Notes under the pieces: model-generated | Database searches by the model: none | What the model was told of the DNA's origin: nothing | Seen by the model: only the letters and a program-made list of their open reading frames with translations | Program-made: the position numbers and the translations under genes | DNA from: Candidatus Aminicenantes bacterium UBA2190 | GTDB lineage: Bacteria; Acidobacteriota; Aminicenantia; UBA2199 | Assembly (NCBI GenBank): GCA_002335385.1 | Contig: DCVK01000021.1 | Span: 137,635-201,634 of the forward strand | DNA length: 64,000 nucleotides | Direction of reading: 5' to 3' | In this document: positions 26,861 through 57,945 of the stretch, piece after piece | Layout of the letters: every line of letters starts with the position of its first letter | Position numbering within the stretch: position 1 is the stretch's first letter

Positions 26861-27099
26861 GGTTTACGGTCGACGGTTTACGGTTTACGGGAAGAAAAGA
26901 GACGATAGGGAGACTTGAATCCAGTTTTCAATTTCCAAAAACAAACAATATCCAAAGCCAAAATTCCAATTTCCAAAAAGAAATCCCTGTTTATTTAGTC
27001 TGTCTTTTTCCTAGCGCCTTGTTCTTCAACGTCGAACTTCGAACATCGAACTTCGAACCTTGTCCAGGGATTTCACATTACTTGTCACTCGTCACTGAT
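26861..27099. repeat. composite intergenic element of four different short-tandem-repeat modules: GGTTTAC x4, CCAAAWT-type, TCGAACW x4, GTCACTC x3
   Basis: Divergent region between the aminotransferase and rlmN. The same module families recur elsewhere in the window. A 97-aa ORF here is low-complexity and spurious. Confidence 0.6.
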
Positions 27100-27109
27100 T
27101 TGCGATACT

Positions 27110-28162
27110 ATGGGACTTGTGAAGGAAGCAATAACTAAACCCTGGGTCCTGGAGCGGCAGCTGGGCGAACTGCGCTCCGAGCTTCTGGCCGAGGGATTTC
27201 GCGACTACGTCGCCCGCCAGGTGTTCCAGTGGGTCTACCGCAAGAACAGCCAGGAACCTTCCTCGTGGAGCAATATCGCCAAGGCCGGCCGCGAGAAGCT
27301 GGCCGGCCTCTATGACTGGAGTCCGCGGCCCGTGCTGCAGGTTCAGGGTGGAGCCCGGGAAGCCCGCAAGTTCCTCTTCCTTCTTGGGGACGGTCAGAAG
27401 ATCGAGGCCGTCCTGATCCGGGAGAAGGACCATTATACTTTTTGCCTTTCGAGCCAGGCGGGATGCCCGCTGGCTTGCGCCTTCTGCGCCACCGGCGCCA
27501 TGGGCTTCCGCCGCGACCTGACCGCCGGGGAGATCGTCAGCCAGGTGCTCGCCCTGAAGAAGGAGCTCGGCGAATATTCCGGCAGGTTGAACCTGGTCTT
27601 CATGGGCATGGGCGAGCCCTTGCTCAACTACAACAACCTGGCCCGGGCCCTGCGCGTCATCACCGAGCCCGACGGGCTGAACATCTCGCCGCGCCATGTC
27701 ACTGTTTCCACCGCGGGCATCCTGGAGAACCTCGCGGAACTGGAGCGTGATTTCCCGCAGGTGAAGATCGCCTTCTCGCTCAATGCCCCCGACCCGCAGC
27801 TGCGCGCCGAGCTGATGCCGGTCTCGCGGAAGCACAGCCTGGATGACCTCCTGGCTTATTTCCGCGGGCACAAGCGCCGCCAGCGGATTACCTTCGAGTA
27901 CGTGCTGCTGGCCGGAATCAACGATTCGCCGGCACAGGCCCGGCAGGTGGCGCGGCTGCTGCACGGCATCCCGGCAAAAATCAACCTCATCCCCTACAAC
28001 GCCAACCCGGGGATGCCGTTCAAGCGCCCCGACGAGGGCGCGGTGGAAAGATTCCGCTCCATCCTGCTGGAAAGGGGCCTGACCGCGGTCACGCGCTGGT
28101 CCAAGGGGCAGGAGACCCGCTCGGCCTGCGGCCAGCTGGCCGTTGGCGGTTTTTCTTGTTGA
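27110..28162 (+). CDS. rlmN: 23S rRNA m2A2503 / tRNA methyltransferase RlmN (radical SAM)
   Basis: Radical-SAM CPLACAFCATG and a C-terminal Cys. Conserved GMGEPL. Confidence 0.9.
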   Translation: MGLVKEAITKPWVLERQLGELRSELLAEGFRDYVARQVFQWVYRKNSQEPSSWSNIAKAGREKLAGLYDWSPRPVLQVQGGAREARKFLFLLGDGQKIEAVLIREKDHYTFCLSSQAGCPLACAFCATGAMGFRRDLTAGEIVSQVLALKKELGEYSGRLNLVFMGMGEPLLNYNNLARALRVITEPDGLNISPRHVTVSTAGILENLAELERDFPQVKIAFSLNAPDPQLRAELMPVSRKHSLDDLLAYFRGHKRRQRITFEYVLLAGINDSPAQARQVARLLHGIPAKINLIPYNANPGMPFKRPDEGAVERFRSILLERGLTAVTRWSKGQETRSACGQLAVGGFSC

Positions 28163-28204
28163 TTTCTACCGGATTCGGTTATATAATATAGTCTCTGGGA
28201 TAGG

Positions 28205-28816
28205 ATGAAATCAAAACTTCAAAAACTCAAGGGTACCTGTATCGGCATCGCCGGCTGCGGCGGGCTGGGCTCCAACTGCGCCGTGGCCCTGGCTCGCGCC
28301 GGCGTCGGCCGCCTGGTCATCGCCGATTTCGACAGCGTGACCCGTGAAAACCTCGACCGCCAGTACTATTTCCTGGACCAGGTCGGGCAGAAGAAGGTCC
28401 GGGCCCTGTACGAAACCCTGCTGCGCATCAACCCCGACATCGTCGTGGAGGCTTATGACCTGCGCCTGGGTCCCGGGGAGATCGCCCACGTTTTCAAGGA
28501 CTGCCAGGTGATCATCGAGGCCTTCGACCGCGCCGACATGAAGCGGATGATCATCGAGGCGGTCGTGGAGCATTTCCCCGACAAGTTCATCATCGCCGGC
28601 TCGGGACTGGCGGGGTACGGCGGCAACAACGAGCTGCGCACGCGCCGGCTCGGCAACCTGTTCATCTGCGGCGATGAGGTCAGCGAGGTTTCCGACGAGC
28701 TGCCGCCCCTGGCGCCGCGCGTGGCCGCGGTGGCGGCGCTGCAGGCCAACCAGGCGCTGGAGATCGTTCTGGACGACATGGAGCCGGCCCGTGGCGGCGA
28801 CGTGTGGGACGAGTGA
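28205..28816 (+). CDS. thiF: ThiF/MoeB-family E1-like sulfur-carrier adenylyltransferase (short form, no rhodanese domain)
   Basis: GIAGCGGLGSN nucleotide-binding loop and the DFD motif. Confidence 0.75.
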   Translation: MKSKLQKLKGTCIGIAGCGGLGSNCAVALARAGVGRLVIADFDSVTRENLDRQYYFLDQVGQKKVRALYETLLRINPDIVVEAYDLRLGPGEIAHVFKDCQVIIEAFDRADMKRMIIEAVVEHFPDKFIIAGSGLAGYGGNNELRTRRLGNLFICGDEVSEVSDELPPLAPRVAAVAALQANQALEIVLDDMEPARGGDVWDE

Positions 28817-28829
28817 ACGAGGAACGAGG

Positions 28830-29033
28830 ATGAAGATCACCTTGAACAACAGCGAGGTCAGCATGGCGGGCGAGTCGTTCAGCGTCCGCGAGCTGCTGGC
28901 CCTGATGAAATTCACCTTCCCGATGATCGTGGTCAAGATCAACGGCCGCCTGGTCAGGAAAGAGGACTACGAGAGGGTCTTCGTCGGCGACGGCGACAAC
29001 GTCGAGGCCATCCACCTGATCTCAGGGGGCTGA
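28830..29033 (+). CDS. thiS: ThiS-like sulfur-carrier protein
   Basis: 67 aa, beta-grasp, ending in ...ISGG (C-terminal Gly-Gly). AGGAACGAGGA RBS. Confidence 0.75.
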   Translation: MKITLNNSEVSMAGESFSVRELLALMKFTFPMIVVKINGRLVRKEDYERVFVGDGDNVEAIHLISGG

Positions 29034-29054
29034 TCAGGACTCAAGCGGACCTTC

Positions 29055-29243
29055 GTGACGCGTAACACGTGACGCGTAACGCGGAAGAAATCAAATTCCA
29101 AATCACAAGCACCAAATTCCAAATAAATCTCAATTTCCAAATTCCAATGACCCAAACGAAGGCCCCTTTGGATTCATTTCTTTGTTTTGGTCATTGGTGC
29201 TTGGAGCTTGTTTGTTATTTGGTGCTTGGAATTTGGTGCTTTA
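29055..29243. repeat. heptamer module CGTGACG/CGTAACA plus a ~155-bp imperfect hairpin built from ACCAAAT/TCCAAAT tandem units (B-type, copy 1)
   Basis: Left arm ...CAATTTCCAAATTCCAATGACCCAAACGAAGGCCCCTTTGG, loop, right arm TTTCTTTGTTTTGGTCATTGGTGCTTGG...TTGGAATTTGGTG. Lies at the convergent junction of thiS and the YkgJ gene. Confidence 0.65.
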
Positions 29244-29275
29244 GTCCAACCTGACTGTCGAGTTTAGTGACTCCT

Positions 29276-29707
29276 TCAACGGAACTGGTCCTGGGCTTTT
29301 CTCCAGCGCGAAATAAAAAAAGCCTCGACATCCTTTTCTTTATAGGGCCGGCCGAGGAATGTGTGCCGGCAGCCCATGTAGGCGGCGCACTCGAAAGGCT
29401 TGACTTCGTGGATGAGGCATTGCCCCTGCGCGGAGAGGAAGACACAGCGGCCTGCCTCATCGGCATAGTAATCGGGGACGACGGAGCCTGGCGCGGCCAG
29501 GAAGTGCGCTGCCTTGATCTTGGCCGGGGCCAGGAATTGGACATGGCTGTCCCTGCCCTTGGCCGGGATGCGCACCAGGAAGCGCCGGCAGAGCTCCGCT
29601 TCGCCGATTTTCTTGAAGGCGGCGATCTTCCTCACGTCGGCGGGGACCAGCCGGCCGGGATCGCGGCGGCAGGCGCTGACGCATTGTTCGCAGGCGCAGG
29701 CCTCCAT
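29276..29707 (-). CDS. Cys-rich YkgJ/UPF0153-family putative Fe-S/zinc-binding protein
   Basis: N-terminal CACEQCVSAC cluster plus C...C...C in the C-terminal half (CVFL...CLIHEVKPFEC). Confidence 0.55.
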   Translation of the reverse strand: MEACACEQCVSACRRDPGRLVPADVRKIAAFKKIGEAELCRRFLVRIPAKGRDSHVQFLAPAKIKAAHFLAAPGSVVPDYYADEAGRCVFLSAQGQCLIHEVKPFECAAYMGCRHTFLGRPYKEKDVEAFFISRWRKAQDQFR

Positions 29708-29708
29708 G

Positions 29709-30605
29709 TCAGCCCCGCCTTGCCGTTTCGGGGTCCAATTGGCGCCGCAACCCCAGGATCGTGTCCAGCTGGCGGCTTGCCGCCTGCTCGCCGCGGCGGA
29801 TGATCTCGGCCGGGCGATAGAACTCGAACATTCTGAAATCCGCGGTATCGACGTGGATGGTCACGTCGGGAGCGTCACTGCGCAGGCGCGACATGACCAG
29901 CTTCTCCTGCATGACCTCGATGGTGGCCAGGATGGTCTCGACCAGATTGGGCTCCTTGCCGGCGCCGCCGCTGAGCAATTTGCGGCTGAAGAAGTCGTCG
30001 AGGCGGGCGATCAGCGGTTTTTCCTTTCCCGGGCGCTCGGGAGACCGGGTCCGCTCCAGCAGCGGCGAAATGACGTTGACGGCGATGGTGAAGGCGGCGC
30101 CGTTCTTTTTCAGCGTGTCGACCGGCACGGGATTGACCAGGCCGCCGTCGACCAGGAAGCGGCCCTCCCAGGAGACGGGCTTGAAGATGACCGGCACGGA
30201 AATGGAGGCGCGCACGGCCCGCGCCAGGCTGCCGTGATCGAGCACGACCTCGATGCCGCGGCGGATATCGGTGGCGATGCAGAAGTACGGTACGTCCAGG
30301 CTCTCAATGGCGGCAGTTCCCAGCGTGTCGTCCAGGAATCCCCGGATGCGCTTCTCCGAAACCAGCCCCGAGCTGCTGGGACGCGCCGCCAGGTATCGGG
30401 AGAGGTTGGCGTCCTCGAACCCCAGTGCGAACTCCTCCACGGTGTGGATATCGCCCTTCAGGCAATACAGGGCGCCGACCAGGGCGCCGATGCTGGTGCC
30501 GGCGACCACCTCCGGGACGATGCCGTGCTGCAGCAGCACTTTGAGCACGCCGATATGGGCCAGCCCCTTGGCACCTCCGCCGCCCAGCGCGATGCCCGTC
30601 GTCAT
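29709..30605 (-). CDS. patatin-like phospholipase
   Basis: GGGAKG oxyanion motif, GTSIG nucleophile elbow, and DGG catalytic Asp. ATGA-type overlap with the upstream dipeptidase gene. The ORF track's extension to 30893 lies in the dipeptidase region and is spurious. Confidence 0.85.
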   Translation of the reverse strand: MTTGIALGGGGAKGLAHIGVLKVLLQHGIVPEVVAGTSIGALVGALYCLKGDIHTVEEFALGFEDANLSRYLAARPSSSGLVSEKRIRGFLDDTLGTAAIESLDVPYFCIATDIRRGIEVVLDHGSLARAVRASISVPVIFKPVSWEGRFLVDGGLVNPVPVDTLKKNGAAFTIAVNVISPLLERTRSPERPGKEKPLIARLDDFFSRKLLSGGAGKEPNLVETILATIEVMQEKLVMSRLRSDAPDVTIHVDTADFRMFEFYRPAEIIRRGEQAASRQLDTILGLRRQLDPETARRG

Positions 30606-31723
30606 CGCCCGTTTCCCGCCCGCGCCACCCGACGCAGGAAGTGCCTCAGGTTCAGGCCGCAGACCCGGCGCACTTCGCCGGCGCGGAACCCCCGCCGGCG
30701 CAGTCCCGCCGCCAGGGCGGGATAATGGGCGGCGTTCCTCAAGTCGGCGGGGGTGGAGGCGATGCCGTCGAAGTCGCTGCCCAGGCCGACGCAGCCGATG
30801 CCGCCGAGCGCGGCGATATGCACGACATGGTCGATCAGGTCGTCCAGGAATACCCGGTTGTTGCCCTGCACCGCCTTCTGGAAGTACTCCCACTCGAGGT
30901 CACTGAGGAGTTTCGGGTCGTCCTCCTTCCCGCGGGAACGGGCCTTGATCTCCCTGGCGTGCCGGGCGAAATTCTCCTCGATCTGCTCGTAGACGCGGCG
31001 GCGAATGAAGGCCGGGTGGAAATTGACGCCGATGAAGCCGCCGCCGGCAGCGATGGCGCGGACCAGGTCGTCGGGCAGGTTGCGCGGCACGTCGCACAGG
31101 CTGCGGGCATTGGAGTGCGAGGCCAGCAGGGGAGCGTTTACCGACCGCAGCACGGCGCGCGTTGTGGCGTCGGAGACGTGCGAAACGTCGATGGCCATCC
31201 CCGTTCGCTCCATCTCCCGGACGATGCGCTTGCCCAGGGCGCTTAATCCCCGCAGGCGCGGGACGTCGGTGGAGGAATCGGCCCAATCGTTGTTCCGACC
31301 GTGGGTTAGGGTCATGCCGCGCACGCCGAGGGAACGGAACACGGCGAGGACCTCCAGGGAGTTCTCGAGCGCATGCCCCCCTTCCAGGAAGACCCAGGCG
31401 GCCAGGCGCCCGGCCGCGACCGCCTGGTCCATCCCGGCCACCGATACGACCTTGACGGCAAGTCCCGGTGCGAAAACCTTCGTTTCGAGCGCCTGCAGCA
31501 CCTCCAGGCCGCGCTTCAGGGCGCGGTGCGGGGCGAAGAGCGGATCGACCCAGACGGCGAAGACCTGCGCCTTGAGCCCTCCCTTCCGGGCCTTGCCCAG
31601 GTCGATGTGGGCGGGGCTGCGGCGGAATCCCCAGGCCTTGTCGGCCAAAACGGTGGCCGTGTCGCAATGGGCGTCAAAGACGAACAGGTCCTGCGCTTCG
31701 CCGGCATTTGCCTTGTTTCTCAT
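30602..31723 (-). CDS. membrane (renal-type) dipeptidase, peptidase M19
   Basis: FDAHCDT, SHSNARSL, and GLGSDFDG metal-ligand motifs. Confidence 0.85.
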   Translation of the reverse strand: MRNKANAGEAQDLFVFDAHCDTATVLADKAWGFRRSPAHIDLGKARKGGLKAQVFAVWVDPLFAPHRALKRGLEVLQALETKVFAPGLAVKVVSVAGMDQAVAAGRLAAWVFLEGGHALENSLEVLAVFRSLGVRGMTLTHGRNNDWADSSTDVPRLRGLSALGKRIVREMERTGMAIDVSHVSDATTRAVLRSVNAPLLASHSNARSLCDVPRNLPDDLVRAIAAGGGFIGVNFHPAFIRRRVYEQIEENFARHAREIKARSRGKEDDPKLLSDLEWEYFQKAVQGNNRVFLDDLIDHVVHIAALGGIGCVGLGSDFDGIASTPADLRNAAHYPALAAGLRRRGFRAGEVRRVCGLNLRHFLRRVARAGNGR

Positions 31724-31876
31724 GCCGGGATTCTATACCAATTCGCCGCCGCGCGAAAGGAGGGATGCTGTCTCCGCCTGGAAGCGGGTCGGGAAAAGCG
31801 CGCTCGCAGGCGAAAAACGCTGCGGTTCATTGACAAACTTTCGCTTTTACATATAATACCTAATGGTGAGGGAATA

Positions 31877-32245: not shown

Positions 32246-32515
32246 ATGAGCGAAAATACTGGCAGCAAGATGTTCTTCAGTTTCCTGACCGGAGCCGCCC
32301 TGGGCGCCGGCTTGGCCCTGTTGTTCGCCCCCCAGTCCGGCAAGGAGACGCGCAAGCAGATCAAGGATTTTTCCGACAAGCTCGGCAATGATGTCAAGGA
32401 CGAGGCCGAAAAGATCAGCAGCAGGGTCAAGTACGAGGTCGACAAGCTCGGCGACAAGGCCAAGAGCATCATCGGCGAAGCCAAGGAAACGTTCGGAAAA
32501 AAATCAAGGATCTAA
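32246..32515 (+). CDS. YtxH-domain protein
   Basis: GAALGAGLALLFAPQSGKETRK is a YtxH signature. 89 aa. Confidence 0.6.
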   Translation: MSENTGSKMFFSFLTGAALGAGLALLFAPQSGKETRKQIKDFSDKLGNDVKDEAEKISSRVKYEVDKLGDKAKSIIGEAKETFGKKSRI

Positions 32516-32645: not shown

Positions 32646-34289
<1,644 letters not shown>

Positions 34290-43118: not shown

Positions 43119-43147
43119 GACGGTATCCGGTGCACGGTTGACGGTGA

Positions 43148-43336
43148 ATAAGGCAAAAGGTAAAAGTAAGAGACGAAGCACCAAATTCCAAGCACCAAAC
43201 AACAAATAATTTCCAAATCCCAAATTCCAATGTCCAAAACGAGAGCCCTTTCAGTTTCTTTTCTTTGTTTGGGTCATTGAATCATTGGCATTTGGTGCTT
43301 ATTTGGGATTTGGTGCTTGTGATTTGGAATTTTAAT
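43148..43336. repeat. B-type tandem-repeat hairpin element (copy 2), preceded by an AAGGCAAAAGGTAAAAG module
   Basis: Same architecture as 29090-29243: ACCAAAT/TCCAAAT units, core CCAATGTCCAAAACGAGAGCCCTTT, loop, TTTCTTTGTTTGGGTCATTG, and inverted units. Again at a convergent gene junction. Confidence 0.65.
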
Positions 43337-43370
43337 TCTTACAATATCTTCCTCTATCGTAGACCGTGAC

Positions 43371-45115: not shown

Positions 45116-46581
45116 TTGTTTTCGCCTCCCTTCCTTTTGCGCTCGGCGCGGAAGAGGGCCAGCCCCTGCTCGCGGGTGCGGAATGCGCCGTCCAGCTGCA
45201 GGTCGTACAGCCGTTTCAGCTGCACGCCCATCTGGCGGCCGGCGGGTACGCCCAGGGCCAGCAGGTCGCGGCCGAGGATCAGCGGCCGGATGGTCTCCTG
45301 GCTGATGCGGTATTCGTCCTTGCGGTCGGCGAACCAGCGGGCGATGGCGTCTAGTTTGCGGAAGGCGAGCGGGCGGTCCGCGCGCGAGCGGCGGTCGGCG
45401 AAATCGAGCAGCAGCAGGAGCAGGTCCTCGCCGTCCATGTCCTTGACGGCCCGGGCGACGGCCTTGAAGGTGATCTCGCCGCGGTTGCGGTAGAGCTCGA
45501 AGATGCGGTGGTGCTGCTGGATCAGCTTCAGCACGATGCGGCGCAGCGGAAAGCCCTGGCGGGTCTCGATGCGCAGCCTCTCCAGCAGGCCGTCGGCCAG
45601 CCTGACGCCGCGCGAGTCGTGGAAGGGGGAGGTGACGGTCATGCGCCCGCGCTTGAACTCCCAGGCGGTGGTGACGGCCTTGCCGCAGTCGTGCAGCAGC
45701 GCCGCCAGCAGCAGCGCCAGCGCCCGCGGCTCGTCCAGGCGCTGCTGGCGCGCCAGCTTGGCGGCGATGTCGACGGTGATCAGCGTATGCGCCCAGACCG
45801 AGTGATGGCCCTGCTCGTCGCTCTCGGGGTGAAAATGGGCGTCCTGGATGGTCAGGGCCAGGACGGCGAGTTCGGGGAAGAGCTGGTCCAGCACGGTCAG
45901 CCGGAAGTACTCCTGCAGGCCCAGCGACGGGCGCGGCGATTCCAGCAGCAGGCGCAGCAGCTCGTCGGCGACGCGCTCGGCGCTCAGCTCGCCCAGCGGC
46001 ACCTTGCGCGCCTTGGCATAGATGGCCTTGTCGACGGCGAAGGCGTGGCGGGAGGCGAAGCGGGCGGCGCGCAAGACGCGCAGCGGGTCGTCGCTGAAAC
46101 TGGCCGGCGAGGTCATGGCGATGCGCCGTCCGGCGATGGCCTGCAGCCCGCGATGGGGATCGGCGACCGCCCCGTCGGCCAGGCGCACGGCGATGGAGTT
46201 GCAGGTGAAGTCGCGCCGCCCCAGGTCCTCCTCCAGGGTGACCTCGGGGCCGGACTGCACCTCGATGTCCCTGTGGCCGTGGGCGCTGCCTTCCTTTTTC
46301 CGGTCGCGGCGCGGCAGGGCGATATCGAAGGTCCGGCCCCGGCGGCTGAACTTGATCACCGCGAAGCTCTTGCCCACGGTGTCGGTCTTGCCGTGCCCGC
46401 GCAGGCGCGACTCGACCTCGTCGTAGCCCAGCCCGGTCACCAGCAGGTCGACGTCCTGCTCGGCAACGGCCTTGCCGTAAAGGACGCGGTCGCGCACCGT
46501 GCCGCCGACGACGTAGGCGTCCCGGCCGAACACTGAGACGAAAAAATCCTTCTGGGGGAAGTCGATGCGCAGCCGCTTCAT
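45112..46581 (-). CDS. cca: CCA tRNA nucleotidyltransferase / poly(A)-polymerase family with HD domain
   Basis: GGxVRD head-domain motif (VVGGTVRD), DxD, and the HD region (LLHDCGK). ATGA-type overlap with folP. Confidence 0.8.
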   Translation of the reverse strand: MKRLRIDFPQKDFFVSVFGRDAYVVGGTVRDRVLYGKAVAEQDVDLLVTGLGYDEVESRLRGHGKTDTVGKSFAVIKFSRRGRTFDIALPRRDRKKEGSAHGHRDIEVQSGPEVTLEEDLGRRDFTCNSIAVRLADGAVADPHRGLQAIAGRRIAMTSPASFSDDPLRVLRAARFASRHAFAVDKAIYAKARKVPLGELSAERVADELLRLLLESPRPSLGLQEYFRLTVLDQLFPELAVLALTIQDAHFHPESDEQGHHSVWAHTLITVDIAAKLARQQRLDEPRALALLLAALLHDCGKAVTTAWEFKRGRMTVTSPFHDSRGVRLADGLLERLRIETRQGFPLRRIVLKLIQQHHRIFELYRNRGEITFKAVARAVKDMDGEDLLLLLLDFADRRSRADRPLAFRKLDAIARWFADRKDEYRISQETIRPLILGRDLLALGVPAGRQMGVQLKRLYDLQLDGAFRTREQGLALFRAERKRKGGENK

Positions 46582-46621
46582 TATGGCCAGATTTTAGCGG
46601 TTCCAACCGCGGAAGTCAATT

Positions 46622-46797
46622 CAGTGAAAAGTAAAAAGTGAAAGGTGAAAAGTGAGAAAAAACAGCACTTGTATGAGTTCTTGCCGCTGCATTTCATTTT
46701 TAACTTCCAATGGATTGGGCACGGCCTTCGCGAGGGGACCGCGACGCTCACCACTCCGGGGAAAAGTAAAAAGTGAAAAGTGAAAAGTGAAGAGAAA
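46622..46797. repeat. two direct copies of a GTGAAAA-heptamer array, AGTGAAAAGTAAAAAGTGAAAGGTGAAAAGTGAG
   Basis: Copies at 46622-46658 and 46760-46797 in the cca/mfd divergent region. Related modules occur at 25200-25225, 43148-43172, and 55205-55240. Confidence 0.6.
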
Positions 46798-47061
46798 ATG
46801 CAATAGTCCGGGATGACGCGGTTATTTTTACAGCCATGATGTGTCCCGCATTAGCGAACGAAACGGAGGGATCGGGTCCCGACCCGGGGAGCGCCGATGG
46901 CCGAAGGTAAAATGGCCACTGTTTGAGTCCCGCGCCAGCGGGACGAGTCGGCCATTTTAATCGGCGCGAAACGCGGTCGGTCGGTCCCGGAGTGGTGAGC
47001 GTTGCGGGACCATCAGGGCGCATTCACTGTGTCGTGCACCGGCGATCGGCTTGGTGATATA

Positions 47062-50253: not shown

Positions 50254-50257
50254 TTAA

Positions 50258-50430
50258 GTGACAGTGTCAGTGTCAGCAGGAAGCATTCAGGGCAATCAAT
50301 GACAGGGAAAGTTTAAGTGTTTGCAGGAGGTTCAAGAAGTCAAAAATAAAGCGAAAGTCAGCGGAAATTATTGGCCTTAAAGGATTTCGGTTATTTCTCT
50401 TGCTGACACTGTCACTGACACTGACACTGT
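50258..50430. repeat. inverted pair of E-type (CTGACA)n hexamer arrays flanking a ~115-bp spacer
   Basis: 50258-50280 GTGACAGTGTCAGTGTCAGCAGG in reverse orientation. 50397-50430 CTTGCTGACACTGTCACTGACACTGACACTGTTA forward. Lies between convergent mfd and a small minus-strand gene. Confidence 0.65.
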
Positions 50431-50447
50431 TACCGGAACTGGAAGAG

Positions 50448-50810
50448 CTAAGGCTTGGTGATCTCCAGGGTCTCCTTCTGCAGTCCGTGCTTCGGGCACT
50501 TCCTGAGGACGCGGATCTCCCCCTTGTCCTTTCCGGTCAAGGAGACGACCAGGTCGAGCCGGTAGACGCCTTCCTCCGTCAGTTCCCACTGGCCCCGCTT
50601 TTCGATCTTCAGCCCTTCCGTTTCCAGGATCGTCTCCGCGATGGCTACCGGGCAGCGCCGGTGTATGCACTCGACGAACAATTTCACCTGGAACTGGTCC
50701 GCTTTGCCCTTGACCAGCGGTCCGGTCTCGCTGTAGACGTAGCAGGGAAGCAGTTGCGACATGCTCCCCATGACCAGCAGCGTCATTATCAATAATATGG
50801 GTCGTTTCAT
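50448..50810 (-). CDS. small secreted/lipoprotein-like Cys-containing hypothetical protein
   Basis: Signal peptide MKRPILLIMTLLVMGSMSQLLPC. 120 aa with 4 Cys. Confidence 0.5.
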   Translation of the reverse strand: MKRPILLIMTLLVMGSMSQLLPCYVYSETGPLVKGKADQFQVKLFVECIHRRCPVAIAETILETEGLKIEKRGQWELTEEGVYRLDLVVSLTGKDKGEIRVLRKCPKHGLQKETLEITKP

Positions 50811-50861
50811 GTTATTCCTTATACGTTAGACAATTGCGTCCGATTTTTCTTGCGTTCCAGA

Positions 50862-50980
50862 GAGTGTCAGTGACAGTGTCAGTGCCAGCAAGAGAAGCGA
50901 ACGAAATCGGAAAATATAGCAACCAATTCATTTTTTTCTTGCTGTCACTGCCACTGACACTGTCACTGTCAGTGGCAATA
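50862..50980. repeat. E-type palindromic element: reversed (CTGACA)n arm, ~45-bp spacer, forward arm
   Basis: AGTGTCAGTGACAGTGTCAGTGCCAGCAAGAG...TTTCTTGCTGTCACTGCCACTGACACTGTCACTGTCAGTGGC. Imperfect ~30-bp arms. Confidence 0.65.
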
Positions 50981-50990
50981 CGTTGAATTG

Positions 50991-51797: not shown

Positions 51798-51885
51798 TTT
51801 CTCTCCACTAGGTCATTGGCTAATGATTTACTGTAACAGAGATGGGGAGTTTAGTCAAGCTGGGGGGCGGCGTAAGGCGAAGCTC

Positions 51886-51998
51886 AGGGAAAGGCAGAGG
51901 GAAGAGAGAGGGAAGAGAGAGTGGAAAGGCCCTTTCAGGACATCTTTCCCACTTCGTCTTCCCTCTGTCTTTCCCTCACTCTTCCCTCATTCTTCCCT
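51886..51998. repeat. D-type 11-mer (GGGAAGGCAGA / GGGAAGAGAGA) tandem-repeat hairpin
   Basis: Forward arm of ~4 units. Loop CCCTTTCAGGACAT. Reverse-complement arm CTTTCCCACTTCGTCTTCCCTCTGTCTTTCCCTCACTCTTCCC. Lies between the 3' end of the DUF5916 gene and the start of the NYN gene. Confidence 0.65.
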
Positions 51999-52004
51999 GC
52001 ATTT

Positions 52005-54626
52005 CTATAGATTGAAATTGTAGGTGAACTTCACCAGGAACACGTTTGTCGACGGCAGGCGCATCAGGTCGCTGAAGCCGCCGGCCACGTCGAACTCGCC
52101 GCGGCCCAGGTCGCCGGAGCGGCCCTGGCTCCAGACCGCGTACAGGGCGGCTCCCGGGCGGTACTCCCAGCGCAGCACCAGGTTGGAGCGCAGCTCGAGA
52201 ACGCGGAAGTCGGGGTTGGCGAAGGAGTAGACAGCGCCGCCCGCCTCGTTCACCAGGTAGTTGCCGCCCTCGGGGTCGAGGCTGATTTCGCCGGCGGCGA
52301 AGGGGCGCAGCTGGTCGTGGATCGAGCCGGCGCGGGGATCGACGACGCGGCGGAAGCCGGCGTAGCGGCCGTTGCTCAGGAAGGGCTGGCCGTAAAACTG
52401 GATGGAGAGGTCGGGGGTGAGGCAGTAGTTCAGGCGCAGGGTCACGTAGTAGGTGTCCTGCTCGATCGTGCCCAGGATATAGCGGCTCTCGCCGCCGATC
52501 TCGGGGGCGGCCACGTACTGCCTGAGGTTGCGGTTGTAGGAGTAGCCGGGAGTGACGCGCAGCGACAGGCGGCTGCCCGGGCGGTAGGCCAGGGCCAGGC
52601 TGGCCCCGCCGCTCTCGCGCGTGTCGTGATCGGCCCGGTAGATCGAGCCGCTCAGCGAGGCCACGAAGGGGCGGCGCGAGTCGCTGCCCAGGCCGTACCA
52701 GACGTTCCAGCCGGGATCAAAGCGCAGCGCCGGGCCGCCGCGCAGGGCGCCGGGCGAGAGGTTGGGCCCCTGGCGGTTGATGCCGGCGTTGACGCTCCAG
52801 TAGTTCTTCAGCTCGCCCCAGAAATTGACGTTGCCGCCGACGAAGATCGGCTCCATGCCGAAGTCGTATCCCTTCCAGCCGTTGAGGTTGATGCCCAGTT
52901 GGTTGAAGATCCAGGTCGGCTTGCGGATGCGGTAGCCGGCCCAGCCCCAGGCCATGGCGGCGTCGCTCCTCCCCAGGTAGCCCATGTCGTTGAGCTCCAG
53001 GCCAGGCGAGCGCCAGGTCAGGCCTCCGGCCCAGTTGATCCCGGTCCCGGCGCTGCGCCCCAGCTCCAGGTTGCCGCCCCAGCCGCCAAGCGAGGTGCGC
53101 GTCGGGTCGAATTCCAGGTAGTCGGCGTCAGGACGCTGAAAGTAGCGGACCGGGGACTTCTGCGTGCGCTCGATCGCCTCGGCGTTTCCTCGCACCAGGC
53201 TGAAGACGGTCTTGGCCGAGACGTGGAAGCGGCGGTTCTTCCAGCTGTGGTAGATGTCGACGCCGCCGCTGTAGGCCTGGCGGTGGAGGAAGTCGAGCTG
53301 CGGGTCGCTGATGTCGCGGTGGACCGCGGTGACCATGGCGCCGAGCACGGTCTTGCCCTCGTTGAGATCCTGCTGGGCGCGCAGCATGAAGTAGTTGGTC
53401 AGCGGTTCCACCGTCTCGTTGCGGTTCCCGCCCGAAAAGGCGATGGCTGCGCTCTCGCGGGCGGTCAGCGCGTCCAGCACGCCGAGCGACAGGCCGCGGC
53501 GCGTCTTGCCGGTGACCTTGAAGGCGCCCAGGATCGAGGTCGCCGTGGGCATGTCGAGGTACTCGCCGGGGCCGGTCTCTGGCCAATGGCGCGGGGCGCG
53601 GCCGACGCGGCGCGAGTAGAAGAGGTTGTCCATGCTGAAGTCGCCGTCGCCGCCCATGATCTGGAAATTCAGGATGCTCTTGCCTTCGGTGAAGAAGGGG
53701 CGCTTCTCCTGGAAGAAGGTCTCGTAGGCCGTCAGGTTGACCACCGAGGGGTCGGCCTCGACCTGGCCGAAATCGGGGTTGAGGGTGAAGTCGAGGGTCA
53801 GGTCGCTGCTCAGACCGACCTTGCCGTCGAGACCGCCGAGCAGGGCGCCGCTGCGGCCGTCGGCGAACGGGTTGCCCGCCTGGCGCGGCGACAGCGTTGC
53901 CTGTGCCACGGTGTAGGGGACGATCTCCACCTGGTGCTGGGCGCGGATGCCCTTCAGCCCCTCGAGAACGCCGAAACTGCTGACGAACCCCGGCGCCTCC
54001 TTGGGGATGTACTGCCAGGAGGAGATCTCCTGCCGGCGGTGGAGCAGGCGCCGCACCTGGAAGCCGAAGGCGACGTTTTCGCCCGCGGCGAAGCGCAGCT
54101 GGCTGAAGGGGATGGCCATCTCGGCCGTCCAGCCGCGGTCGTCCATGGCGGCGGCCGCGTCCCAGACCGGGTCCCAGGTGGAGTCCTGGTTGTTGCTGTC
54201 GCCCGAGAGGGTGACGTCGGCCTTGACGCCGGCGGCGTTGACCTTGAAGCCCAGGGCGGTGCGCTTGTCGAAGTAGCTGTCGATCAGGACCGCCACGTAG
54301 TCGCCGTCGATCTCGTCGCGGCGCGAGATGCGGCGCCCGATCTTTCCCGACTCGTTGTCGTGGCAGCGGACCAGCACGTACAGGTGCTTGTCGTCGAACA
54401 TCACCTTGAACTCGGTGGGCTCGCCCGGGGCGGCGCCGCAGTCGGGCTCGCTCTGGGTGAAGCCGCCGCTCCACTCTGCCTTCTGCCAGCAAGGGTCGTC
54501 GCCGCGGCCGTCGATCGCCGGCGCGTGGGGATTGATATGCTTGCAGGTGTAGACTTTCTTTTCCGCGGCGTCGAGCGCCGCCAGGCCCAGCAGGGCCATC
54601 AACAACGCGAACAGCGCTTTCTTCAT
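52005..54626 (-). CDS. large secreted outer-membrane-associated protein, DUF5916 / carbohydrate-binding (CBM9-like) family
   Basis: Signal peptide MKKALFALLMALLGLAALDA with GGAGG RBS. About 870 aa with a C-terminal beta-barrel-like region ending in aromatic-rich ...VKFTYNFNL. The ORF-track N-terminal extension beyond 54626 is repeat-derived and spurious. Confidence 0.7.
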   Translation of the reverse strand: MKKALFALLMALLGLAALDAAEKKVYTCKHINPHAPAIDGRGDDPCWQKAEWSGGFTQSEPDCGAAPGEPTEFKVMFDDKHLYVLVRCHDNESGKIGRRISRRDEIDGDYVAVLIDSYFDKRTALGFKVNAAGVKADVTLSGDSNNQDSTWDPVWDAAAAMDDRGWTAEMAIPFSQLRFAAGENVAFGFQVRRLLHRRQEISSWQYIPKEAPGFVSSFGVLEGLKGIRAQHQVEIVPYTVAQATLSPRQAGNPFADGRSGALLGGLDGKVGLSSDLTLDFTLNPDFGQVEADPSVVNLTAYETFFQEKRPFFTEGKSILNFQIMGGDGDFSMDNLFYSRRVGRAPRHWPETGPGEYLDMPTATSILGAFKVTGKTRRGLSLGVLDALTARESAAIAFSGGNRNETVEPLTNYFMLRAQQDLNEGKTVLGAMVTAVHRDISDPQLDFLHRQAYSGGVDIYHSWKNRRFHVSAKTVFSLVRGNAEAIERTQKSPVRYFQRPDADYLEFDPTRTSLGGWGGNLELGRSAGTGINWAGGLTWRSPGLELNDMGYLGRSDAAMAWGWAGYRIRKPTWIFNQLGINLNGWKGYDFGMEPIFVGGNVNFWGELKNYWSVNAGINRQGPNLSPGALRGGPALRFDPGWNVWYGLGSDSRRPFVASLSGSIYRADHDTRESGGASLALAYRPGSRLSLRVTPGYSYNRNLRQYVAAPEIGGESRYILGTIEQDTYYVTLRLNYCLTPDLSIQFYGQPFLSNGRYAGFRRVVDPRAGSIHDQLRPFAAGEISLDPEGGNYLVNEAGGAVYSFANPDFRVLELRSNLVLRWEYRPGAALYAVWSQGRSGDLGRGEFDVAGGFSDLMRLPSTNVFLVKFTYNFNL

Positions 54627-54708
54627 CGTCGTCCTCCTCGGGATCGGGATCGTACCTGCCTGGTAATACTTGGGATTGGGGGGAGAGGTAACAGGAAAGC
54701 CAGTCCAG

Positions 54709-54845
54709 TCACAGTGACGAGTGACAAGTGACGAGTGACGAGGAGCGGGCAAAGAAGAGAGACTCAAGGGAAGGCAGAGGGAAGGCAGAGGGAAGAAGGA
54801 GGGAAGAGAGAGTGGGAAAAGCGGGAAGCGGAGGGAAAAGAGGAT
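54709..54845. repeat. AGTGACG heptamer x4 (I-type) followed by D-type GGGAAGGCAGA 11-mer x4
   Basis: CACAGTGACGAGTGACAAGTGACGAGTGACGAGG...AAGGGAAGGCAGAGGGAAGGCAGAGGGAAGAAGGAGGGAAGAGAGAG. Single arms upstream of gene 54921. Confidence 0.6.
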
Positions 54846-54920
54846 GTCGGGAGGCCCGGGATCAGGACTTTCATTATTTCCGGTTCGGGAGTACCATCTT
54901 GCCGGCAAGGAGGAACACGA

Positions 54921-55193
54921 ATGGCTTATGAAGCGGAAGGAAGAAAGATCGCCGCCGACCTGCGTGCGCAGTGCGGCAAGCTGCTGGAGGCGCGCCTGGA
55001 GTCGAAGAGCCCCAGCCGCATCGTCCTGGCCTTCGAGAAACAGACCATCACCCTGCCGGGCAATTTCATTTTCCAGTTCGGCTATGCGGGATCCGGGCCC
55101 GATTGCTTTCACGCGTTCCTCCAGGAGTCGGGTTTCAGCGTGACCAAGGAGCAGGTCACCGGGGCCAAAGAGGGCGATATTCTGAAGCCCTGA
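54921..55193 (+). CDS. small hypothetical protein (90 aa)
   Basis: AAGGAGG RBS 7 nt upstream. No recognisable motif. Confidence 0.5.
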   Translation: MAYEAEGRKIAADLRAQCGKLLEARLESKSPSRIVLAFEKQTITLPGNFIFQFGYAGSGPDCFHAFLQESGFSVTKEQVTGAKEGDILKP

Positions 55194-55204
55194 AAGAAAA
55201 GATC

Positions 55205-55337
55205 TTCTAAAGGCAAAAGGCCAAAGGAAAAAGGCAAAAGTGAAGAAAGATATCTATCGAGTGCTCTCTGCAACCACTATCACTACCGCTCAAGTCTCGT
55301 TTGCTTTCTTGCTGACACTGACACTGTCACTGACACT
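55205..55337. repeat. A-type AAGGCAAAAG module, F-type CCACTA hexamer x4 module, and E-type (CTGACA)4 module in series
   Basis: AGGCAAAAGGCCAAAGGAAAAAGGCAAAAGTGAAG ... CAACCACTATCACTACCGCT ... CTTGCTGACACTGACACTGTCACTGACACT. The E module ends 21 nt before the RBS of gene 55359. Confidence 0.65.
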
Positions 55338-55358
55338 TAGAATAAATAAGGAGGAATC

Positions 55359-56072
55359 ATGGATCCGCTGGTCAGCCAGGTACGCCGGGAGCTGAGGGAG
55401 AATACCGACGAGAAGAAGCGCCGGGGGGCCCAGGCCTATTTCAAGGAGGGGGTGACCTGCCTGGGCGTGGGCACGGCGACCGTTCACCGCATCGCCCGGG
55501 AGAGGATCGCCGATCTCAAGGGCATGACCAAGGGGGAGGTCTTCGGGCTGTGCGAGGAGCTGTGGCGCGCGGGGAGCCTCGAGGAGACGATCGTGGCCTG
55601 CGACTGGTCGTACTTCATCCGCCGGCAATACGTCCCCGGGGACATCACGGTGTTTGCCGGGTGGGTCGGCAAATACGTGAACAATTGGGCGTCATGCGAC
55701 ACGCTGTGCAATCACTCGGTCGGGGAACTCCTGGAGATGTACCCGGAGCGCGTGGCCGATCTGAAGCAATGGGCCCGGTCGAGGAACCGCTGGCTGCGGC
55801 GCGGGGCCGCCGTGTCGCTGATCATCCCGGCCAAGAAGGGAAAGTTCCCGGACGACGTCATGCAGATCGCCGACATCCTGCTCGAAGATCCGGACGACCT
55901 GGTGCAGAAGGGCTACGGCTGGATGCTGAAGGTGGCCAGCCAGGCGCGGCAGAAGGAGATCTATGCCTACGTGATGCGCAACAAAGCGGCCATGCCGCGA
56001 ACGGCCCTGCGCTATGCCATCGAGAAGATGCCGGCCGAATTGAAACGGCGGGCGATGAAGAAGCAGGCATGA
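55359..56072 (+). CDS. DNA alkylation repair enzyme (AlkD/AlkC-like HEAT-repeat glycosylase family)
   Basis: N-terminal ...RGAQAYFKEG...GVGTATVHRIARE typical of PF08713. HEAT-like helical repeats throughout. Confidence 0.75.
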   Translation: MDPLVSQVRRELRENTDEKKRRGAQAYFKEGVTCLGVGTATVHRIARERIADLKGMTKGEVFGLCEELWRAGSLEETIVACDWSYFIRRQYVPGDITVFAGWVGKYVNNWASCDTLCNHSVGELLEMYPERVADLKQWARSRNRWLRRGAAVSLIIPAKKGKFPDDVMQIADILLEDPDDLVQKGYGWMLKVASQARQKEIYAYVMRNKAAMPRTALRYAIEKMPAELKRRAMKKQA

Positions 56073-56083
56073 AGGGAAGTTCT

Positions 56084-56225
56084 CAAGGGAAGGCAGAGGA
56101 AAGAAACAGATGAGGTTCGAAGTTCGACGTTCGACGTTTAAGAATAAAGCGAGAGGAGAAAGGCTATAACACTTGGATCTCGCTTATGTTCTTGCTGACA
56201 CGGACACTGCCACTGACACTGTCCT
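56084..56225. repeat. D-type unit, C-type GTTCGAA/GTTCGAC heptamer x4, and E-type (CTGACA)n module
   Basis: CTCAAGGGAAGGCAGAGG ... GAGGTTCGAAGTTCGACGTTCGACGTTT ... CTTGCTGACACGGACACTGCCACTGACACTGTCC. A TATAAT box (56248-56253) lies between the E module and the RBS of gene 56297. Confidence 0.65.
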
Positions 56226-56296
56226 GAAATAAAATCCATTTCCGCATATAATGCTGGCGTGCTCCGCTCCCGGGGGCGGGGAACAAGGAGGAGCAA

Positions 56297-56857
56297 ATGG
56301 TGACATTGTTTTCATTGTGGCTGCCGATCGTCGTGGCGGCCGTTGTCGTGTTCATCGCCAGCTCGGTCATCCACATGGCGCTGCCCTGGCACAAGAAGGA
56401 CATGATCAAGGTGCCCGGGGAGGACGAGGTGCGCGAGGCGCTGCGCAAGTTCGCCATCCCGCCCGGGGACTACGGCGTCCCCCACGCCGGCTCGATGAAG
56501 GAGGGGAGCTCGCCGGAGTTCACCGCCAAGCTGAACGAGGGGCCGGTGCTGTTCATGTCGGTGGCCAGGAACGGCCCGCCCAACATGGCGCTCAGCTTCG
56601 TCTTCTGGTTCCTCTACTTGCTGGTCGTCGGCAAGCTCACGGCCTACGTCGCCTGCCTGGCGCTGCCCGCCGGCGCCGCCTTCCTGCCTGTCTTCCGTCT
56701 CACCGGCGCTGTGGCCTTCGCCGGTTACTCCCTGGCCCTGCTGCAGCGGCCCATCTGGTACGGCGGCAGCTGGTGCGCGACCCTCAAGTCGGTGTTCGAC
56801 GGCCTGGTCTACGCTTTGCTGACCGCCGCCGTCTTCGGCTGGCTGTGGCCGCGCTGA
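56297..56857 (+). CDS. hypothetical integral membrane protein
   Basis: About 5 predicted TM segments. GGAGG RBS. Confidence 0.5.
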
Positions 56858-56906
56858 GGTGCTTCGGGCATATCTTGTAAACGATACCGGACAATAATCA
56901 GATAAC

Positions 56907-57028
56907 GGGAGGGTTTGAAACCCTCCCCTACGTGAAGATGTTTCTTTTCCTCCTGCAACCACTACCACTATCACTACCACTGATACCTGTAATGCCTCTT
57001 GCTGACACTGACACTGTCACTGACACTG
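56907..57028. repeat. J-type hairpin GGGAGGGTTTGAAACCCTCCC+CTACGTGAAGA, F-type (CCACTA)4, and E-type (CTGACA)4 modules
   Basis: Stem-7/loop-7 hairpin followed by the CTACGTGAAGA tail, as at 57850-57881. The F and E modules are near-identical to those at 55268-55337. Followed by TTGACG...TATATAAT promoter-like boxes before gene 57100. Confidence 0.65.
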
Positions 57029-57099
57029 TTTAGTTGACGCGGTCATACAATGATGCTATATAATAATAACGATGAATTAACGCATCGGGGAGGTGTATC

Positions 57100-57327
57100 A
57101 TGGTCAAGACGCTCAGCAAGCACGGCAACAGCCTGGCCCTGGTCATCGAGAAGCCGGTGCTCGAGCTGCTGGGCGCCGACGCCGCCACTCCCTTCGAAGT
57201 GACCACCGACGGCCGGGCGCTGGTGCTGACGCCGGTGCTCGACCCGCAACGGCAAAAGCGCTTTGCCGCGGCCCTGGACAAGGCGAACAAGAAATATCCC
57301 CGGGCGTTGAAGAAGCTGGCCGAATAG
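57100..57327 (+). CDS. AbrB/MazE/SpoVT-family antitoxin (Phd-like partner of Doc)
   Basis: 75 aa. Swapped-hairpin motif region KHGNSLALVIEKPVLELLG. Stop overlaps the Doc start (TAGATG). Confidence 0.75.
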   Translation: MVKTLSKHGNSLALVIEKPVLELLGADAATPFEVTTDGRALVLTPVLDPQRQKRFAAALDKANKKYPRALKKLAE

Positions 57328-57735
57328 ATGGCCGGCCCCGTTTTCCTGACTTTGGCCGAGGTGTTGGAGATCCATCGCGACCAGATCGGTCGTTACGGGG
57401 GCAGGGAGGGAATCCGCGACCTGGAGCTGCTGCAATCGGCGCTGGCCGTTCCCGCGGCTTCCTTCGCCGGCGGATTCCTGCATGAGGGCCTGCCGGAGAT
57501 GGCCGTCGCATACCTGTTCCACATCGTCCGCGACCATCCCTTCATCGACGGCAACAAGCGCACGGGGGCGGTGGCGGCGCTGGTTTTCCTGCTGCTCAAC
57601 GGCCATGAGCTCCGCGCCCCGGAAGACAAGCTGTTCGAGGCTGTCCTCGCCGTGGCCTCCGGGAAGATGTCCAAGGCCGAGCTGACCCTGTTCTTCCGCC
57701 GCTGGACGAAAAAAGGGCAGGGAAAGAAGAGATAG
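57328..57735 (+). CDS. doc: Doc (death-on-curing) toxin, Fic-fold kinase
   Basis: Fic/Doc motif HPFIDGNKRTG. About 135 aa. Confidence 0.9.
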   Translation: MAGPVFLTLAEVLEIHRDQIGRYGGREGIRDLELLQSALAVPAASFAGGFLHEGLPEMAVAYLFHIVRDHPFIDGNKRTGAVAALVFLLLNGHELRAPEDKLFEAVLAVASGKMSKAELTLFFRRWTKKGQGKKR

Positions 57736-57762
57736 GACGGGATTAGAACCTGTTTCCGCATC

Positions 57763-57945
57763 GGGCGGGCACGGGGGCCCGCCCCTACGGAAATATTGCG
57801 GCAGGCTTACACCCCAAGGAGGTTAAACCCTCCTTACATGGAAAAATGCGGGAGGGTCACAGACCCTCCCCTACGTGAAGAGACAATGGGAACCTGCCGG
57901 TGTAGTCCTCCAGCTCTTGCTGACACTGACACTGTCACTGACACT
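57763..57945. repeat. three consecutive GC-stem hairpins each followed by CTACG (J-type), then an E-type (CTGACA)4 module
   Basis: GGGCGGGCACGGGGGCCCGCCC-CTACGG. AAGGAGGTTAAACCCTCCTT. GGGAGGGTCACAGACCCTCCC-CTACGTGAAGA. CTTGCTGACACTGACACTGTCACTGACACT at 57915-57945. Confidence 0.65.

Follow-up and report, generated by a model that had tools for sequence, protein, structure and literature searches.

Repetitive extragenic palindromic (REP) sequences and bacterial interspersed mosaic elements (BIMEs) have units of ∼35 nt that occur in hundreds of extragenic copies, are combined as mosaics with defined linkers, often lie after stop codons, and can act as hairpins. They are conserved at the level of the family and turn over at the level of the locus. 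In cyanobacteria, heptamer repeats are known as short tandemly repeated repetitive (STRR) sequences. Aminicenantes (OP8), the lineage considered here, are widespread and uncultured, and a literature search found no paper joining Aminicenantes, intergenic and repeats. A 64,000-nt stretch of Candidatus Aminicenantes bacterium UBA2190 (contig DCVK01000021.1, positions 137,635 to 201,634; called the window below) carries between its genes dispersed modules of about four short tandem units, one of which is a variant.

The closest description of such modules is that of repeat elements in Geobacter metallireducens. The Gmet_H4 family has four tandem heptanucleotides (GGACCGG x4) and 49 copies (Aklujkar et al. 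2009, PMC2700814), and three classes of “global regulator sites” (classes 1-3) consist of GTTGCTYN x4, TCTCCGTS(Y) x3, and MTYCTGA x5 (PMC2700814). These families are reported as unique to one species and as absent from G. sulfurreducens, and their function is also only conjecture (PMC2700814). Related Geobacter and Pelobacter genome papers also bear on elements of this type. The likeness to the Aminicenantes modules lies in dozens of dispersed copies of three to five tandem 7-9-nt units, in several unrelated families of one build per genome, and in frequent pairing on opposite strands at variable distance, an arm-loop-arm arrangement. It is descriptive and not a matter of homology, as the units are unrelated; the phyla also differ. 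The Aminicenantes modules are common to a whole class and are 63-fold excluded from genes, whereas GGACCGG is also found inside genes. Moreover, a leader, an interior-variant rule, and head-to-tail chaining are not described for the G. metallireducens elements. The Aminicenantes system is thus more rule-bound and phylogenetically broader than the Geobacter case.

TAACTGA heptamer repeats come in 2-6 copies, with 169 sets, immediately upstream of start codons, and are found in Beggiatoaceae, cyanobacteria, and Bacteroidetes (MacGregor 2015, PMC4679880). Like these repeats and STRR sequences, the modules include tandem heptamers at very many intergenic sites, are restricted to a lineage, and have slippage as a proposed generator. 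However, TAACTGA is one unit sequence whose position at start codons suggests translation control, whereas the modules comprise at least 10 unit families, obey no position or strand rule, and have a fixed copy number of about four, a leader, and composites. The arrays here are short, unlike those of long simple sequence repeats, whose definition rests on arrays of unusual length. Slippage microsatellites share with the modules whole-unit changes in copy number between relatives, but not the sharp mode at four copies or a leader, spacer, and variant position common to unrelated sites. Composites with a conserved internal order recall miniature inverted-repeat transposable elements (MITEs), Correia elements, and small dispersed repeats of cyanobacteria. 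Inverted termini in CCAAAT/GGTTTAC composites, nesting in the loop of another element, and presence/absence polymorphism between related genomes are also MITE-like; unlike MITEs, the modules show no target-site duplication, and their smallest indel is a 34-40-nt non-palindromic module. REP sequences and BIMEs are matched in having many extragenic copies excluded from coding DNA and defined linkers. An earlier reading of the window from its letters (the original prediction) called the modules BIME-like, which holds only loosely, for their dispersed, mosaic character. It does not hold for the unit or its orientation: the REP unit, of 20-40 nt, is imperfectly palindromic and carries a 5' GTAG, whereas the module copies read have neither 5' GTAG nor self-complementarity (fold z about -0.5), and BIME units alternate, whereas ∼85% of neighboring modules are co-oriented.

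On balance, the modules probably form a superfamily of dispersed repeats, small, modular, and non-coding, that spans the class Candidatus Aminicenantes. In the window, 27 non-coding gaps of 100 nt or more, 5.7 kb altogether, were scanned with a strict module definition, and arrays were called by Tandem Repeats Finder together with a reading of the coordinates cited in the original prediction. The gaps hold 19 strict modules; 100 dinucleotide-preserving shuffles of the same gaps give a mean of 0.08 and a maximum of 1, so the regularity is far beyond chance. Called arrays have a period of 6, 7, or 11 nt and 3.3-5.6 copies, spread from 25.2 to 57.9 kb, and all fall outside genes on a map built from codon statistics, which is in accord with the genes that databases list for this contig. 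The original prediction placed modules in almost every non-coding stretch longer than 100 bp. This proves too broad: a strict module is present in 10 of the 27 gaps, and looser forms (period-14 and CCAAAT arms) occur in two more, at 29.0 and 43.1 kb. A shorter gap near 25.2 kb also carries one module, and true gaps at 1.4, 10.9, 21.3, 32.5, 35.4, 38.7, 39.6, and 40.4 kb carry none. Modules of about four copies with one variant unit were nonetheless recovered at most of the sites it named, the weak ones being 25181, 27079 (2.4 units), 55271 (3 units), and 56084. Its assignment of 55205, 43148, and 25200 to AGTGAAA is replaced by the AAAGGCA/AAAAGTG family. The mosaic combination that it described, with different orders, single arms, and arm-loop-arm hairpins, was found in all three forms.

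The build of the modules was studied in 724 kb of DNA, comprising the window and ∼100 loci of related species (L numbers). These loci, which sample the relatives at ∼1% of each genome, were chosen for a CTGACA module; heptamer arrays were not selected by that pattern. The basic module is ∼30-40 nt long. A pyrimidine-rich leader (such as tcTTGC, ccTGC, tttCTTC, or tctTTCT) precedes about four units of 6-7 nt that are A+C-rich on the leader strand, and this strand defines module orientation. Pyrimidine content is 68% in the last 10 nt upstream of modules versus 54% downstream. Heptamer arrays from the ∼100 loci, placed in half-copy bins, number 37 at 4.0 copies, 85 at 4.5, and 7 at 5.0. Hexamer arrays other than CTGACA peak at 4.5 copies, and 113 of 127 CTGNCA arrays with at least four units have exactly four. 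Only 7 of 276 four-copy arrays are perfect, and the mode of 90-94% matches corresponds to one variant unit. The variant is nearly always internal: the CTGNCA arrays read AATA in 41 cases, ATAA in 18, TAAA in 2, and AAAT in 2, giving 59 interior and 4 terminal variants for the CTGACA family. An inner variant is also present in ACC-ACC-ATC-ACC, AAC-ATC-AAC-AAC, and CGTCACG-CGTCACG-CGTTACG-CGTCACG. The same build is common to at least 10 families whose units are unrelated, and the inner variant often changes to T; in the CTGACA family it yields a short dyad readable in the sequence, TGACA-C-TGTCA. The regular build of four units with one variant is genuine and calls for an explanation.

Modules also combine by rule. 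Neighbors are mostly chained head-to-tail across semi-conserved spacers of roughly 14-20 nt, and a ∼75-nt composite, CCTGC(ACCACT)4-aatgcccgtaaggcct-CTTGCT(GACACT)4, recurs 31 times with near-constant spacing. The ACCACT-to-CTGACA gap, measured from regex to regex, is centered on 26 nt and falls within 20-32 nt in 29 of the 31. Higher-order tandem repeats of 110-144 nt consist of three modules each. The layout differs from that of CRISPR arrays, in which identical direct repeats alternate with unique spacers of similar length: the 24-30-nt cores of chain neighbors differ and are of low complexity, and it is the short spacers that are semi-conserved. A conserved mini-hairpin in the spacers was also considered; of the spacers upstream of CTGACA modules, only 76 of 139 contain a stem of at least 4 bp, at varying positions.

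The original prediction regarded the repeat system as genome-specific, but all ten families that it named recur in loci of other Aminicenantes species, which makes the system lineage-wide. One genome per species was searched for CTTGCTGNCACTGNCACTGNCACTGNCAC, and at least 105 stretches matched, nearly all in Candidatus Aminicenantes/Acidobacteriota metagenome-assembled genomes (MAGs) of at least 14 species, some of them on contigs of 0.3-0.6 Mb. The same families with the same build occupy non-orthologous sites in these genomes. Carriage by phages was considered and rejected, with only 2 viral contigs holding the CTGACA pattern. Several records labeled “uncultured Clostridia bacterium” also carry Aminicenantes modules: L010, L033, L040, L043, L046, L054, L060, L079 (CAZLSH01), and L041 (CAZVPI01). 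Over 6.3 kb, L033 and Aminicenantes UBA6072 (L084) share 91% identity, so the Clostridia label of these MAGs is probably wrong, judging from sequence.

Independent assemblies preserve the modules of the window. Its RlmN is encoded in six assemblies: ERZ27315072, ERZ27315071, and ERZ27315067 from ENA, SRR5323328 from Logan, and 3300035454 and 3300035312 from JGI. Window positions 17110-38162 are identical to ERZ27315072 contig k141_951137 (194 kb); the other five match the region at 98.9-100% identity, and four of them cover module-bearing intergenic stretches. For the part that bears modules, identity among assemblies of other samples is 99.7-100%. The original prediction had named uniqueness to the window, or loss in independent assemblies, as what would undo it, and neither is observed. 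The sole cluster of differences between assemblies falls outside modules, and no strain-level variation in unit number was seen among the six assemblies of this species. ERZ27315071 (L002) agrees with the window at 99.9% identity apart from its leftmost ∼700 nt (L002 1-700 versus window 21064-22022), around ndk and its upstream gap; this strongly diverged end may be a recombination tract or an assembly chimera.

Between species, by contrast, turnover is rapid. It was measured in orthologous gaps of species pairs that are 86-93% identical, where bases opposite gaps make up 27.7% of modules, 18.8% of other intergenic DNA, and 1.9% of coding DNA. Aligned identity is 73% in modules, the same in other intergenic DNA, and 91% in coding DNA. 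Units and modules change as wholes. L044 and L058 differ by an 18-nt indel of three AGTGTC units in one module and a 7-nt indel of one unit in another. A 34-nt indel between L057 and L111 is the complete module CTTCTTGCT(GACACT)4 (full sequence CTTCTTGCTGACACTGACACTGTCACTGTCACCT), and a 40-nt indel between L072 and L046 is a leader with (CATCACG)4. Larger indels of 51-62 nt comprise one module plus a spacer or trailer, and multi-module blocks of 220-256 nt are also gained or lost, one being a CCAAAT hairpin with GTTGAAGC and CTGACA modules nested in its loop. As a control, a module-free gap in the L063/L088 pair (∼92% identical overall) shows only scattered mismatches. The modules are non-coding, with indels that are not multiples of 3 and positions outside open reading frames (ORFs) with coding statistics. 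Family consensus sequences, however, are nearly invariant across species. Single copies without protection under a near-invariant consensus are the pattern expected of sequences that keep being copied, and not that expected of locus-specific regulatory sites.

One position is nevertheless retained. Aminicenantes MFD01872.bin.2.146 (L076) is syntenic with window 43.5-51.8 kb at ∼80% identity and keeps (AGTGTC)4-GCAAGAAAA right after the mfd stop codon, the same place as in the window. A 120-aa ORF at 50448-50810 on the minus strand, with no Pfam match, is bracketed in the window (50283-50988) by two inverted CTGACA pairs and is absent from L076, where only ∼176 nt occupy the interval. It has the look of a small gene that came or went between pairs of modules.

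Placement relative to genes follows few rules. Over the 724 kb, density is 3.35 modules/kb in intergenic and 0.053/kb in coding DNA, a 63-fold enrichment, with densities biased upward for the CTGACA family by which the loci were picked. A correlation with gene-boundary type, which the original prediction proposed looking for, appears as a mild depletion from divergent gaps (16% of modules versus 23% expected by length) beside 31% versus 24% in convergent gaps, and not as an orientation bias: in tandem-gene gaps 77 modules are antisense and 75 sense, and no single family examined has a marked bias. The stop codon of an opposite-strand gene is often within ∼24 nt of a module, and co-oriented start codons downstream are a median of 78-110 nt away. 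Random strand and loose position argue against a strand-specific RNA signal and against position-specific operators; the placement fits elements tolerated wherever promoters stay undisturbed. CCAAAT hairpins lie in convergent, tandem, and divergent gaps in proportions of 27%, 59%, and 14% (24%, 53%, and 23% expected by length), and a role as terminators specific to convergent genes was rejected for so mild a skew. Also rejected was the idea that CTGACA units are repeated -35 hexamers, as their spacing to -10-like hexamers is not fixed; it is further weakened by the half of the copies that abut gene 3' ends. A consensus scan of 50.2-58.3 kb finds the module hexamer serving as -35 in two of six promoter-like sites, and terminator-like sites in the region number 9 versus 7.3 by chance.

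Under the dispersed-repeat interpretation, whole modules and composites would be copied into and lost from intergenic DNA by a process that recognizes sequence, either transposition-like or gene-conversion-like. Replication slippage would add or remove whole units and keep the units of a module alike, and interrupted arrays would persist because the inner variant damps slippage, a stabilizing role that we infer. Effects on genes, such as hairpins after stop codons or -35-like CTGACA near promoters, would be secondary and depend on the site. Several points weigh against this interpretation. No mobilizing gene or transposase was identified, with relatives sampled at ∼1% of the genome, and there is no target-site duplication at clean module indels. 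Single modules lack a hairpin, unlike the REP elements handled by REP-associated tyrosine transposases (RAYTs), and the selection of loci inflates the CTGACA densities. Simple copying does not explain why at least 10 unrelated families share one build, and a near-invariant consensus could instead reflect selection for protein binding. The shared build might also be the footprint of a dedicated lineage-specific machine, either a recombinase or transposase that recognizes non-palindromic modules by their four phased repeats and inserts them between genes, or a polymerase that reiteratively copies a 6-7-nt template to ∼28 nt. This is a doubtful proposal; if true, either machine would represent a way of spreading small elements that is new for bacteria.

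The consensus, near-identical across at least 14 species, also lies at the center of a reading in which one or more abundant proteins, nucleoid-associated or global regulators, would bind the modules as arrays of sites and assemble as multimers on four phased repeats. A copy number fixed near four, a variant at a fixed inner position, the short dyad formed by the CTGACA variant, and many copies just upstream of sigma-70-like promoters are all consistent with such binding, as is the proposal of IHF/HU sites for the four-repeat elements of G. metallireducens (PMC2700814). However, at least 10 unrelated units would require many different readers, and unit lengths of 6, 7, and 11 nt have no common helical phase. 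There is no preferred distance or orientation to genes, and individual sites come and go more quickly than the rest of the intergenic DNA; together these features argue against locus-specific regulatory sites. Nesting in loops and the 110-144-nt higher-order repeats are satellite-like behavior. From this analysis, protein binding as the basis of the modules seems possible if rather unlikely; a protein that reads repeated units, which the original prediction suggested, is a possibility of this kind. A role in RNA, whether as terminators, 3'-end stabilizing hairpins, Rho-loading tracts, or sites for multimeric RNA-binding proteins as suggested for Beggiatoaceae TAACTGA, draws on the folding of inverted pairs far beyond shuffles (z -4.3 to -7.6), on modules close to opposite-strand stop codons and after the mfd stop in two species, on a leader strand that is C-rich and G-poor, and on the depletion from divergent gaps. 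Yet only ∼20% of modules are accompanied by an inverted partner within their gap, and modules on their own show no folding beyond that of shuffles (z -0.4 to -1.0). The paired hairpins of the window lack the U-tail of intrinsic terminators, terminator-like sites are near the number expected by chance, and no Rfam family matches. The even split of orientations relative to transcription, which a strand-specific signal would not allow, leaves an RNA function improbable.

Two remaining explanations dispense with copying. In-place slippage or template switching in AT-richer intergenic DNA could yield the modules as a pure mutational by-product with no function. Unit-multiple indels between species and units that vary in concert within modules (GACACT, ACCACT, and AACACT families) speak for such events, and heptamers are described as the commonest long simple repeats in many bacteria and ascribed to polymerase slippage (Mrazek 2007, as relayed in PMC4679880). 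Slippage alone predicts decaying copy numbers, however, and not a sharp mode at four with a cut-off at five. It leaves unexplained both the clean whole-module indels and the recurrence, across many species and at hundreds of unrelated sites, of 30-75-nt sequences identical down to their leader, spacer, and variant position, and is quite improbable as the sole source. An assembly or chimera artefact might be suspected in a MEGAHIT-style k141 contig from a short-read metagenome, given that low-complexity repeats can mislead assemblers. This is exceedingly improbable: the region was recovered in other samples by other pipelines (SRR5323328, 3300035454, 3300035312, ERZ27315071, ERZ27315067), at least 14 other MAGs carry modules, some on the long contigs noted above, and one module is conserved at the same place beside mfd in another species.

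The modules and related elements of the window are as follows.

25199-25225, minus strand: AAAGGCA/AAAAGTG-type module between convergent genes; family in 20 other Aminicenantes loci.
26861-26901, minus strand: (GGTTTAC)x4.3 with variant unit GGTCGAC and purine trailer GGAAGAAAAGAG, called by Tandem Repeats Finder.
26929-26980, plus strand: single CCAAAT-type arm, forming with 26861-26901 a composite known from other species.
27022-27059, plus strand: leader TTCTTC and (AACGTCG/AACTTCG/AACATCG)x4.4; array call at 27024, CTTCGAA/CATCGAA x5.
27081-27097, plus strand: short remnant (CTYGTCA)x2.4, from sequence reading.
29054-29090, minus strand: (CGTGACG/CGTAACA)x4 with trailer GGAAGAAA; CGCGTCA family, 28 arrays.
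29091-29241, no strand assigned: CCAAAT/ATTTGG arm-loop-arm hairpin between convergent genes; minimum free energy (MFE) -74.8 kcal/mol, z -7.6 (fold 29050-29260).
43150-43178, minus strand: AAGGCAAAAGGTAAAAG module, from sequence reading.
43179-43332, no strand assigned: second CCAAAT/ATTTGG hairpin element, between convergent genes; MFE -66.5 kcal/mol, z -4.3 (fold 43125-43350).
46623-46662, minus strand: (AGTGAAA)x4.7 with trailer GAGAAAAAA; alone no fold, z -0.4.
46761-46798, minus strand: (GAAAAGT)x4.4 (AGTGAAA array at 46761) with trailer GAAGAGAAAA, called by Tandem Repeats Finder.
50256-50283, minus strand: (AGTGWC)x3.3 and GCAGGAAG, directly after the mfd stop; inverted partner of 50397-50429.
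50397-50429, plus strand: leader CTCTTGCT and (GACACT/GTCACT)x4, from sequence reading.
50863-50974: inverted CTGACA pair (50863-50894 minus, 50936-50974 plus) forming a long hairpin; MFE -49.2 kcal/mol, z -5.7 (fold 50855-50978).
51887-51999, no strand assigned: inverted 11-mer pair, GGGAAGRGAGA and TCTTCCCTC; MFE -60.1 kcal/mol, z -4.3 (fold 51882-52000).
54712-54745, minus strand: (AGTGACG)x4.3 with variant AGTGACA in a divergent gap; ACGAGTG family, array call at 54713.
54768-54844, minus strand: 77-nt polypurine tract of GGGAAGGCAGA-type 11-mers, x5.6; no fold above chance, z -1.0.
55209-55250, minus strand: (AAAGGCA)x4.6 with trailer GTGAAGAAAGA; nearly identical copies in L086 and L048.
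55268-55337, plus strand: same-strand chain of CTGCA(ACCACT-type)x3, spacer, and TTCTTGCT(GACACT)x4, ending 21 nt before a start codon.
56074-56149, minus strand: GGGAAGGCAGA remnant and (GTTCGAM)x3.4 with trailer; array call at 56115.
56189-56221, plus strand: degenerate CTGACA module, called by Tandem Repeats Finder.
56950-57027, plus strand: chain of CTCCTGCA(ACCACT ACCACT ATCACT ACCACT), spacer GATACCTGTAATGC, and CTCTTGCT(GACACT GACACT GTCACT GACACT); array call at 56958, ACCACT x4.
57914-57945, plus strand: CTCTTGCT(GACACT GACACT GTCACT GACACT), identical to 56996-57027.

Eight CTGACA arrays are present in the window (50257, 50403, 50863, 50942, 55312, 56195, 57002, and 57920), and 11-mer arrays (GGGAAGRSAGA) are called at 51896, 51957, and 54767. 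The trailer GGAAGAAAAGAG at 26861-26901 is the reverse of a pyrimidine leader, and the CCGTAAA family carries the same leader in other species. The order of the composite that begins there is kept across species: [GGTTTAC]4, GAAGAAAAGAG, GCAATACGAAGACTT, AAATTCC and onward. The 54768-54844 tract is almost pure polypurine and sits in a gap between divergent promoters; such polypurine-polypyrimidine stretches are able to adopt a triplex (H-DNA) form.

Genes next to the modules are of the ordinary chromosomal kind, among them an rlmN-like radical SAM gene, methylmalonyl-CoA mutase, mfd, and the CCA-adding enzyme, along with genes for an NYN-domain protein, a DNA alkylation repair protein, and Fic/Doc. 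No transfer RNA was found in the window, and no Rfam family matches it at the gathering threshold. At 54922-58213 lies a row of small same-strand genes, each with a CTGACA module ahead of it: a 90-aa ORF, the DNA alkylation repair protein, a 186-aa ORF, and a 76-aa ORF with Fic/Doc, followed by a 137-aa ORF at 58214. Integron-like cassettes were considered for 54.9-58.2 kb and set aside: the genes possess their own ribosome-binding sites as well as promoter-like ones (for example TTGACG-17-TATATAAT before 57100), and modules also flank the housekeeping genes mfd, rlmN, and purA.

Two other kinds of element occur nearby. REP-like elements lie on the minus strand at 56905-56931, 57762-57788, and 57849-57874, and possibly at 57813-57843. 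They consist of GTAGGGG followed by a GC-rich imperfect palindrome, such as GTAGGGGAGGGTTTCAAACCCTCCC or GTAGGGGCGGGCCCCCGTGCCCGCCC, and the same type is present in many other Aminicenantes loci, with stems that differ yet pair (for example GTAGGGGCGGTTCGCGAACCGCCCTTAC). Recurrence with different but pairing stems suggests that a RAYT-type system may coexist with the tandem-unit modules. The second element, at 46837-47018, is a GC-rich segment of 182 nt that takes the form of a single long, rod-like hairpin when folded (-97 kcal/mol, z -6.2); inverted repeats of 17 nt (46746-46762 and 46988-47004) flank it. L076 4688-4869 matches it at 86% identity, but in inverted orientation relative to the flanking cca and mfd genes; this is its single orthologous copy in the 724-kb set. 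A search of 46560-47060 gave no Rfam match at E<=1. The segment may specify an unrecognized non-coding RNA whose rod shape resembles that of 6S RNA, or it may be invertible DNA.

The Aminicenantes modules belong to a familiar category of bacterial intergenic repeats, and their uniform build hints at an undescribed mechanism. In practice, they could serve binning and strain typing as markers of the lineage, are places where short-read assemblies are likely to break, and are natural sites of rearrangement, as with the gene at 50.3-51.0 kb that is absent from L076. A rule-bound grammar shared by the class fills a large share of its intergenic DNA and implies a copying mechanism or a binding protein. 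The Geobacter precedent suggests that elements of four short tandem units are a recurrent, unstudied class of bacterial repeats.

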